This document shows, piece after piece, positions 2,100 through 3,559 of a stretch of 64,000 nt of DNA (positions are counted from its first letter, which is position 1; every line of letters starts with the position of its first letter). A program made the position numbers and the translations under genes. The notes under the pieces are model-generated. The model did no database searches. It had not been told where the DNA came from and saw only the letters and a program-made list of their open reading frames with translations. This DNA is from Escherichia phage ECO111 5-P: sequence record OR844765. One strand, written 5' to 3'.

Positions 2100-2573
2100 A
2101 TGATTATCAATGAAAACTCTTGGCACTTTAAAATTTATGCCGCGTTCAATAGTACATGGAATCGTCCGAAAACGTTATGTGCTTATTTTTGGAAAACGTT
2201 TCTCCCGGTATTAGCTGTTTCAATTGTTGGATTTGCAACTTTAGCAGGTGCCGCAATCATTGGCCAAGAAATTTTAATTAAATTCTTTGTCTTTAGTAGT
2301 CTATGGACATTAGTTCCGGCCTCAATTGGTGTAGGCATTTTAATTGTAGCAGTCATGGCTTTTATTGCTGTCGGTGCGGTAATTGGTCCTTCCTGGTTGT
2401 TAGACAAATATAACGACCGAAAGCTCAATAAAGAAATTGAGATCATTGTACAAAACGAAGAACGAATCAAAAATGGACTTGAGCCTATTCAACCCAAGAA
2501 ATCGATTATCGTTGAATTTTTAAAAGCTCGTAAAGCTAAAGTGTGTCCTGTTATTGAATATAAGGCTAAATGA
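2100..2573 (+). CDS. multi-pass membrane protein (157 aa)
   Basis: ATG with AAGGA SD; several long hydrophobic stretches. Confidence 0.55.
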   Translation: MIINENSWHFKIYAAFNSTWNRPKTLCAYFWKTFLPVLAVSIVGFATLAGAAIIGQEILIKFFVFSSLWTLVPASIGVGILIVAVMAFIAVGAVIGPSWLLDKYNDRKLNKEIEIIVQNEERIKNGLEPIQPKKSIIVEFLKARKAKVCPVIEYKAK

Positions 2574-3559
2574 TGAAAACAATTATGAAAGGCTACTTTG
2601 GTAGCCACCTTTATGGAACGTCTACTCCTGAATCTGACGTCGATTTTAAAGAAATTTATGTCCCTCATGCTCGTGATATCTTGACCGGTAACGTTAAAGA
2701 ACACATGAGCAAGAACACGAATAACACATCTTCTAAGAACACAAAAGACGATGTGGACCACGAGTTGTATAGTCTCAAATATTTCTTTAAACTAGCTGCA
2801 GATGGTGAAACCGTCGCATTAGATATGCTTCACACTCCACCAAGTCTAGTAGTTAAATCTGATTTGCCTGATGTATGGAAGTATATTCAAGATAACAGGT
2901 CTCGTTTCTATACCACTAACATGAAATCTTATTTAGAGTATGTCCGTAAGCAAGCTTCTAAATACGGTGTCAAGGGTTCTCGACTGGCTGTTCTTCGTCA
3001 AGCCCTTAAACGTTCTAATGAATGGGGGCAATACTTTGATAATGGTGCAGTAATTCGTTTATCACATATGAAGAATGTTCTGCCTGTAGGTGAATTTGCT
3101 TCGTGGGTTGAAACCGAAAACGAGAAAACAGGTAAGCAAACATTCTATAATCTGTTAGACCGTAAATTCCAAGACACGTTAACCAATAAAGAGTTCAATG
3201 CCATCCTGGTTAAACTGGAAGAGAACTATGGTGAACGTGCTCGTAAGGCAGAAGCCAATGAAGGTATTGATTGGAAAGCATTGAGTCATGCATGTCGTGG
3301 TGGACTTCAACTATTAGAAATTTACAAAACCGGCGACCTGGTTTACCCACTTCAGGATGCTCCATTTATTCTCGATGTTAAGCTTGGTAAACATACGTTT
3401 AAAACCGTACAGGAATTCCTAGAAGATATCGTTGTCCAAGTTGAACATGCAGCAGAACAAGCTGCTAAGAACGGTATGCAACAAAAAGTAGATATGAGTT
3501 TCTGGGATGACTTCCTTGAACAAGTCTACTTAGAAAACCACAATTCGTACTATAAATGA
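2570..3559 (+). CDS. putative nucleotidyltransferase (Pol-beta superfamily fold)
   Basis: N-terminal GS-x9-SDVD motif (YFGSHLYGTSTPESDVDF) typical of minimal nucleotidyltransferases; ATGA overlap with upstream stop. Confidence 0.55.
   Translation: MMKTIMKGYFGSHLYGTSTPESDVDFKEIYVPHARDILTGNVKEHMSKNTNNTSSKNTKDDVDHELYSLKYFFKLAADGETVALDMLHTPPSLVVKSDLPDVWKYIQDNRSRFYTTNMKSYLEYVRKQASKYGVKGSRLAVLRQALKRSNEWGQYFDNGAVIRLSHMKNVLPVGEFASWVETENEKTGKQTFYNLLDRKFQDTLTNKEFNAILVKLEENYGERARKAEANEGIDWKALSHACRGGLQLLEIYKTGDLVYPLQDAPFILDVKLGKHTFKTVQEFLEDIVVQVEHAAEQAAKNGMQQKVDMSFWDDFLEQVYLENHNSYYK

Follow-up and report, generated by a model that had tools for sequence, protein, structure and literature searches.

The DNA analysed here is a 64,000-nucleotide stretch of Escherichia phage ECO111 5-P (sequence record OR844765), referred to below as the window. 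On its + strand, positions 2570-3559 hold an open reading frame (ORF) that starts with ATG and encodes a protein of 329 amino acids (aa) followed by a stop codon. The protein begins MMKTIMKGYFGSHLYGTSTPESDVDFKE / MMKTIMKGYFGSHLYGTSTPESDVDF and contains a GS-x10-DxD motif, with G11-S12 at nucleotides (nt) 2600-2605 and D23-V-D25 at nt 2636-2644. A preliminary description of this DNA gave a coding region and a nucleotidyltransferase (NTase) motif that coincide exactly with this ORF and with GS-x10-DxD. Taken alone, the GS/DxD pattern carries little weight as evidence, since of the 94 open stretches of 100 aa or more in the window, 2 unrelated ones match it as well.

The surrounding 2.2 kb is 95-97% identical to many RB69-like T-even (Mosigvirus) genomes. 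Over its full length, the protein is 98.8% identical to NrdC.11 of RB69 (RB69p103) and 77.7% identical to NrdC.11 of T4, and on this basis we assign ORF 2570-3559 as the RB69-type ortholog of T4 nrdC.11. The T4 gene has the synonym tk.-11, and its product is listed as 'uncharacterized 38.9 kDa protein'. Because of the 77.7% identity to T4 NrdC.11, the earlier view that the gene has no T4 counterpart is incorrect. The gene order mobD.1, 157-aa membrane protein, nrdC.11, small ORF, nrdC.10 is conserved, and the T4 and RB69 genes hold an equal position between mobD.1 and nrdC.10. The slot directly before nrdC.11 is taken in T4 by the homing endonuclease gene mobD, which runs into the nrdC.11 start, and in the window and in RB69 by the 157-aa membrane-protein ORF (2100-2573 in the window), the stop codon of which overlaps the nrdC.11 start in the ATGA at 2570-2573. 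Many database orthologs are annotated at 328 aa, with a start one codon shorter, and the RefSeq product of RB69p103 is 'nucleotidyltransferase'.

NrdC.11 homologs were found in 1514 of 50,697 phage records. In a library of representatives at 50% identity, 3030 clusters match at E <=1e-3 and 703 at E <=1e-30, mostly as full-length proteins of ~320 aa. Three Escherichia T4-like phages of 164-165 kb (vB_EcoM_G5211, KFS-EC and vB_Eco_SAP) match NrdC.11 only as two separate segments (39-46% identity, 67-86% coverage) and may thus carry a version that is shortened or rearranged. The names 'thioredoxin' and 'Thioredoxin, phage-associated' are attached to NrdC.11 in dozens of entries of GenBank and UniRef. 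The protein contains no thioredoxin domain, the label has apparently spread from the gene name nrdC.11, and it should be corrected in the GenBank records.

The gene is already known and annotated, it has been assigned to a named family, and a role has been proposed for it in published work. The nucleotidyltransferase assignment goes back to 2006, with Nolan et al. among the sources, and the family name RlaP was introduced by Burroughs and Aravind (2016), according to PMC12776372 and PMC7824862. In the PF10127 similarity network of a preprint from December 2025, T4 NrdC.11 is labelled 'RlaP of unknown function' (PMC12776372). What is added here is the divergence of the NrdC.11 type from canonical RlaP and its placement in tandem upstream of canonical RlaP in 18 of 80 cellular loci.

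The features of the gene were assigned with an alignment of the window protein and 80 diverse representatives (81 sequences, 34-52% identity), an hhalign profile-profile comparison with 15 canonical RlaP proteins drawn from cellular loci, and an AlphaFold2 (AF2) model built on the 81-sequence alignment:

2570..3559, + strand: coding sequence of an nrdC.11-type RlaP nucleotidyltransferase (ORF list, Pfam RlaP, PHROG 388, identity to RB69 and T4)
2570..2965, + strand: Pol-beta NTase catalytic core, aa 1 to ~132 (Pfam, hhalign, AF2 alpha/beta core)
2600..2605, + strand: G11-S12, the hG[GS] NTase motif (invariant in the 81 sequences; aligns with the canonical RlaP GS)
2636..2644, + strand: D23-V-D25, metal-binding carboxylate pair (both Asp invariant; aligned with the canonical DYD)
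2750..2764, + strand: D61-V-D63-H-E65 strand, in which D63 is the probable third catalytic carboxylate (conservation, hhalign, AF2 strand 62-68)
3035..3184, + strand: poorly conserved beta-sheet subdomain, aa ~156-205 (AF2 strands; lowest column conservation and alignment gaps)
3269..3298, + strand: D234-W-K236-A-L-S-H240-A-C-R243, signature of the NrdC.11-type C-terminal helical domain (conservation in the 81 sequences)

Catalytic core and predicted fold

Profile searches give strong evidence of family. Pfam PF10127 (RlaP, 'RNA repair pathway DNA polymerase beta family') matches aa 7-138 (E-value 6.4e-12; score 46.1 bits, gathering cutoff 23), and PHROG 388 'nucleotidyltransferase' matches the protein over its full length (E 1.4e-124). 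PF10127 is matched by 80 of the 81 clade members. Residues G11, S12, S22, D23, D25, Y132, K236 and R243 are invariant in the alignment, while N57, D61, D63, D85, K131, D234, W235, A237, H240 and A241, among others, are kept in at least 90% of the sequences. The hhalign comparison with canonical RlaP gave a probability of 94.5% (E 7.5e-8) over 117 core columns, spanning aa 2-131. It pairs GS with GS, D23 and D25 with the canonical DYD, D63 with the invariant Asp of 'lDinGWD', and D85 with the invariant Glu of the canonical 'EWL' motif. Because D23, D25 and D63 are paired with canonical RlaP residues, they are most likely the catalytic carboxylates.

The AF2 model was obtained with high scores (predicted local distance difference test, pLDDT, 93.3; predicted template modelling score, pTM, 0.82). 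It contains an N-terminal alpha/beta NTase core with strands at residues 3-10, 24-31, 45-49 and 62-68, the last of which holds D63. The core is followed by a long helix (119-155), a small beta sheet at 177-201 (strands 177-184, 188-195 and 198-201) and a C-terminal helical bundle (206-328). Structural matches of the model are Pol-beta nucleotidyltransferases only. Sequence searches of the PDB with the protein and with the 81-sequence profile returned no relative, only spurious matches at E >0.09. The protein shows the hallmarks of the Pol-beta superfamily, namely hG[GS] followed after 10 residues by [DE]h[DE]h, a third carboxylate on a later strand and an alpha/beta NTase fold. The superfamily assignment made in the preliminary description is borne out by the Pfam RlaP match, the alignment, the predicted fold and the structural matches; the catalytic Asp pair, the loss of which in a proper alignment had been named as the point to watch, is retained in all 81 sequences.

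The structural matches bring with them the alternative that NrdC.11 nucleotidylylates a non-RNA acceptor, either a protein or a small molecule, in a manner akin to AMPylation or aminoglycoside adenylylation (compare kanamycin nucleotidyltransferase, MntA and DrrA). ANT(4') and other antibiotic NTases (1kny, 6un8, LinB 3jyy) are the top Foldseek matches and have an NTase core and a helical C-terminal domain in common with NrdC.11. However, these matches reach only E ~1e-3, a template modelling (TM) score of ~0.3 and 9% identity, sequence profiles give no match, and the acceptors acted upon are different; we consider such an activity improbable. The MntA antitoxin (HEPN-MNT, type VII toxin-antitoxin) was rejected as an identity, with the MntA model scoring 13 bits against a cutoff of 60.

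A second alternative is that the enzyme makes or manipulates a nucleotide or oligonucleotide signal, in a CD-NTase-like or HalB-like fashion, and so disturbs host defence signalling. Hailong HalB (PDB 9dbh), a defence NTase that synthesises oligodeoxyadenylate, shares only 16% identity with NrdC.11, its C-terminal domain differs, and nrdC.11 has no HalA-like partner gene. PADLOC returned no match for the systems modelled in PADLOC-DB v2.0.0 (2023), among which HalB was not confirmed. At E-values of up to 1, Pfam gave no CD-NTase, SMODS or PolyA_pol (PF01743) match, and the top 50-60 structural matches include neither a cGAS nor a CD-NTase. The protein has been placed in the RlaP family, and signal synthesis predicts neither the RNA-repair context nor the Rnl1-like phyletic pattern described below. 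We regard a signalling role as extremely improbable, and an identity as CD-NTase/cGAS-like synthase was rejected on the profiles, the structures and neighbours that are not effectors. The defence-signalling and toxin or antitoxin ideas of the preliminary description find no specific support beyond the shared Pol-beta core.

Divergence from canonical RlaP and genomic context of relatives

NrdC.11 and canonical RlaP have in common the homologous catalytic core with its GS, DxD and third Asp aligned, as well as the succession of an N-terminal NTase domain and a C-terminal helical domain (from the AF2 model and the description in PMC12776372). Relatives of NrdC.11 are also linked to RtcB, RtcA, Pnkp, Hen1 and Rnl genes, as is the case for canonical RlaP. 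The two types nevertheless differ in several respects. Canonical RlaPs are ~255-290 aa in length and NrdC.11 is ~70 aa longer; they are too short for an equivalent of its beta-sheet subdomain (sheet aa 177-201), and the NrdC.11 type bears a DWKAxSHAxR signature of its own. In this genome, unlike canonical RlaP, nrdC.11 has no ligase gene adjoining it. A published similarity network likewise places NrdC.11 in cluster 5 and canonical RlaP in cluster 1a (PMC12776372). A search with the pattern DWKA[LIV][SH]HAxR retrieved 141 cellular relatives. In the BFVD collection of viral structures, numerous phage NTases of 230-290 aa and of unverified family match the model along its whole length (target-normalised TM score, TMt, 0.5-0.7), consistent with a shared two-domain plan. 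Sequence comparison makes the NrdC.11 type a divergent RlaP subfamily, for which homology to canonical RlaP can be demonstrated in the catalytic core alone. The best profile-profile path through the C-terminal part sets K236-x3-H240-A-x-R243 against the canonical K-x3-Y-A-x-R, a correspondence drawn by eye and unproven.

We surveyed 80 cellular loci of NrdC.11-type genes and counted RNA-repair genes within 6 kb. At least one such gene was found in 13 of the 80 loci, with RtcB in 9 of these. By a rough estimate made without a computed background, we infer that this lies far above the level of a random gene. In a Nitrosospira locus (L032:1558-9161), Ro60/TROVE, RtcB, RtcA, the NrdC.11-type NTase, canonical RlaP and Hen1 are all encoded on one strand. 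A 4-kb contig (L008:62-3803) carries an NrdC.11-type gene, a 130-aa ORF, Pnkp (E 1.5e-51 to RB69 PseT), a 143-aa ORF and an Rnl1-like ligase (E 4e-18), an operon that amounts to a heal, add and seal cassette. This contig was binned to a Bathyarchaeota metagenome-assembled genome (MAG), and may be phage-derived. Among phages, the homolog of Sinorhizobium phage phiN3 sits between Rnl2-like and Rnl1-like ligases, and that of Rheinheimera phage Barba19A is two genes downstream of a CCA-adding enzyme (PolyA_pol head and HD domains). NUDIX hydrolases were seen near the NrdC.11-type gene in a Bacilli MAG (L004:2998-4053) and in phiN3 (L085:6674-7105), and small HD phosphohydrolases directly downstream of it in two further loci (L012 and L073); these neighbours may be partners that heal ends or act on the nucleotide pool.

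Canonical RlaP itself (PF10127, E down to 1e-81) is, by a wide margin, the most frequent neighbour family and lies immediately downstream and on the same strand in 18 of the 80 loci, often with overlapping stop and start codons; every other family occurs in at most 9. The tandem loci are L009, L011, L016, L020, L024, L030, L032, L036, L052, L053, L055, L057, L065, L072, L074, L075, L077 and L078, with L032:6004-6975 followed by L032:6979-7746 as an example. The pair looks like a tandem two-nucleotidyltransferase module, and no description of this arrangement was found in the literature searched. Among phages, canonical RlaP occurs in 78 records only, mainly phiKZ-like Pseudomonas phages. It was found in no Escherichia phage, and the T-even phages therefore carry the NrdC.11 type alone.

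Proposed function in tRNA repair

Repair of tRNA by T4 Pnkp and Rnl1 is the founding example of RNA repair, and RloC-type nucleases have been proposed to defeat it by excising a nucleotide. Biochemical work on the RlaP family concerns two Pseudomonas enzymes only, PfRlaP and PaRlaP, encoded between rtcB and rtcA (PMC12776372). Both add 1-2 nucleoside monophosphates (NMPs) to an RNA 3'-OH, with a preference for Mn2+, and are inactive on DNA and protein (PMC12776372). In a nicked-tRNA mimic, they favour the anticodon-loop break over the acceptor 3' end, and they partly restore aminoacylation of a tRNA that is short of one loop nucleotide (PMC12776372). RlaP has been proposed, in that preprint and earlier by Iyer et al. 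(2021), as a counter to 'smart' ribotoxins like RloC, which trim a nucleotide after cleavage (PMC12776372; PMC7824862).

We consider NrdC.11 to be probably an enzyme of RNA 3'-end nucleotide addition and tRNA repair, at a probability of roughly 0.6. In the mechanism we envisage, D23, D25 and D63 would hold two divalent cations, and one or two NMPs would be moved from nucleoside triphosphates (NTPs) to the 3'-OH of broken RNA without a template. The likeliest substrate would be the 5' half of a tRNA, left after an RloC-type anticodon nuclease of the host has cleaved the anticodon loop and trimmed it back. NrdC.11 would act after 3'-end healing by the phage Pnkp (PseT) and before sealing by Rnl1 or Rnl2, so that loop length is restored and the repaired tRNA becomes functional again. 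For the phage protein itself, the evidence comprises its orthology, its fold, an RlaP-family core in which the catalytic residues are conserved, and the repair genes found beside relatives, whereas NMP addition to an RNA 3'-OH has been demonstrated only for the distant Pseudomonas members. For the phage enzyme we infer an NMP-adding activity, a tRNA substrate and a role in countering nucleotide-excising anticodon nucleases. The earlier suggestion that the protein could modify host nucleic acids is compatible with the NMP addition to RNA 3'-OH described for the family (PMC12776372), but the likely purpose would be tRNA repair to the benefit of the phage rather than an attack on the host.

The distribution of the gene is suggestive in this respect, as the genus spread of NrdC.11 mirrors that of Rnl1. 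Counted per host genus and not record by record, the phage records with NrdC.11 and with Rnl1 number 608 and 636 for Escherichia, 286 and 287 for Klebsiella, 83 and 83 for Shigella, 75 and 77 for Aeromonas, 69 and 69 for Acinetobacter, and 56 and 56 for Enterobacter. Synechococcus phages account for a further 377 records with the polymerase gp43, and this host genus is outside the top genera for both NrdC.11 and Rnl1.

Several observations weigh against a repair function. The Pfam match is restricted to profile positions 23-145 of 249, and the C-terminal half alone gave no significant profile-profile match to canonical RlaP (E 0.33). Only the N-terminal core matches RlaP, and substrate specificity could therefore differ from that of the Pseudomonas enzymes. 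None of the RNA-repair seeds (RtcB, RtcA, Hen1, Ro60, Pnkp, Rnl1, Rnl2-like ligase, CCA-adding enzyme and HD phosphohydrolase) matched any ORF of the 64-kb window, the immediate neighbours are T-even ORFs of unknown function, and in RB69 pseT and rnlA lie ~80 kb from nrdC.11. In the cellular survey, 67 of the 80 loci are without an RNA-repair neighbour, and the comparison with Rnl1 is one of genera. T4 nrdC.11 is dispensable in laboratory hosts (nrdC.11-mobD.3 deletions; PMC9825161), and there is no reported activity or phenotype for any phage NrdC.11.

The same biochemistry could also be read as pointing to tRNA 3' termini. NrdC.11 would then add one or two terminal nucleotides to repair or mature the CCA ends of tRNAs, either phage or host, backing up or assisting the host's own CCA-adding enzyme. 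The Barba19A homolog, two genes downstream of a verified CCA-adding enzyme, would fit such a role, as would the finding that the characterised RlaPs label full-length tRNAs, adding 1-2 nt with little NTP specificity (PMC12776372). We nonetheless hold it to be rather unlikely: NrdC.11 matches no class I or class II CCA-adding family, the Pseudomonas enzymes prefer the anticodon-loop break to the acceptor 3' end, and the association with ligase, Pnkp, RtcB and Hen1 suggests that the breaks repaired are internal ones. Membership of the CCA-adding enzymes or poly(A) polymerases was itself rejected, there being no PF01743 match.

Tailing by 1-2 nt might instead alter the stability of mRNA or other RNAs as part of T-even control of RNA decay. 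The characterised RlaPs do label many cellular RNAs, including rRNA-sized species, and no repair partner lies near the gene in the window; on the other side, repair is favoured both by the way the gene tracks Rnl1 across host genera and by the operons that relatives share with repair genes. A role of this kind appears very improbable.

The proposal of a repair function is itself not new, having been put forward in Burroughs and Aravind (2016), as relayed by later papers, in Iyer et al. (2021) and in the Carruthers et al. (2025) preprint. As the idea is already in the literature, we present tRNA repair by NrdC.11 as a testable question rather than a discovery. Restoration of the excised nucleotide by NrdC.11, if it occurs, would be the last move in an arms race of three steps (cut; trim; add back and seal) and would give a function to a gene of ~1500 sequenced phages, the host genera of which closely track those of Rnl1. 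A more detailed picture is possible, though doubtful. The NrdC.11 type would form a structurally distinct subfamily that has the catalytic core in common with canonical RlaP but is set apart by a beta insertion of ~50 residues, a C-terminal domain undetectable by sequence and the DWKAxSHAxR motif. It would be half of a bacterial two-NTase module, encoded in some cases within Ro60-RtcB-RtcA-Hen1 repair operons; in the T-even phages, where canonical RlaP is absent, it would be the missing third enzyme of Pnkp/Rnl1 tRNA repair, rebuilding anticodon loops after RloC-type excision.

Flanking genes and downstream hairpin

No informative function was obtained for the ORF at 3607-3882 (91 aa), nor for the membrane protein upstream of nrdC.11. 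NrdC.10 (3941-4933, 330 aa) contains a Walker-A-like GAAGIGKT and gives weak matches to AAA_22, AAA_16 and STAND, all below the Pfam cutoffs, as well as a weak HTH_37 match in its C-terminal part. Its gene is less widely conserved than nrdC.11, being present in 3 of 6 phages (PMC1524935).

One further feature was recorded between nrdC.11 and the 91-aa ORF:

3561..3578, + strand: hairpin rich in GC, with a UUCG loop; it may mark the 3' end of the transcript or stabilise it (terminator scan, RNA fold)

The hairpin lies 2 nt past the nrdC.11 stop and has a perfect GC-rich stem of 7 bp closed by a UUCG tetraloop. The terminator scan flags it on the - strand only, where there is a T-rich tail; on the + strand, no T-run follows the stem. 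The fold predicted for it (-13.4 kcal/mol, z = -1.0) does not stand out from shuffled sequence. Related phage records (H3, H4) have a 'terminator' annotated within the matched segment, and promoter-like hexamers occur past the hairpin at 3608-3635 and 3886-3913.

Homing endonucleases recur at the flanks of nrdC.11, with mobD in T4 (L002:2241-3020) and a gene directly downstream in phiN3 (L085:6033-6659). In phage NRG-P0074 (H1) and Klebsiella phage Earwig (H74), the matched segment itself holds a homing endonuclease.

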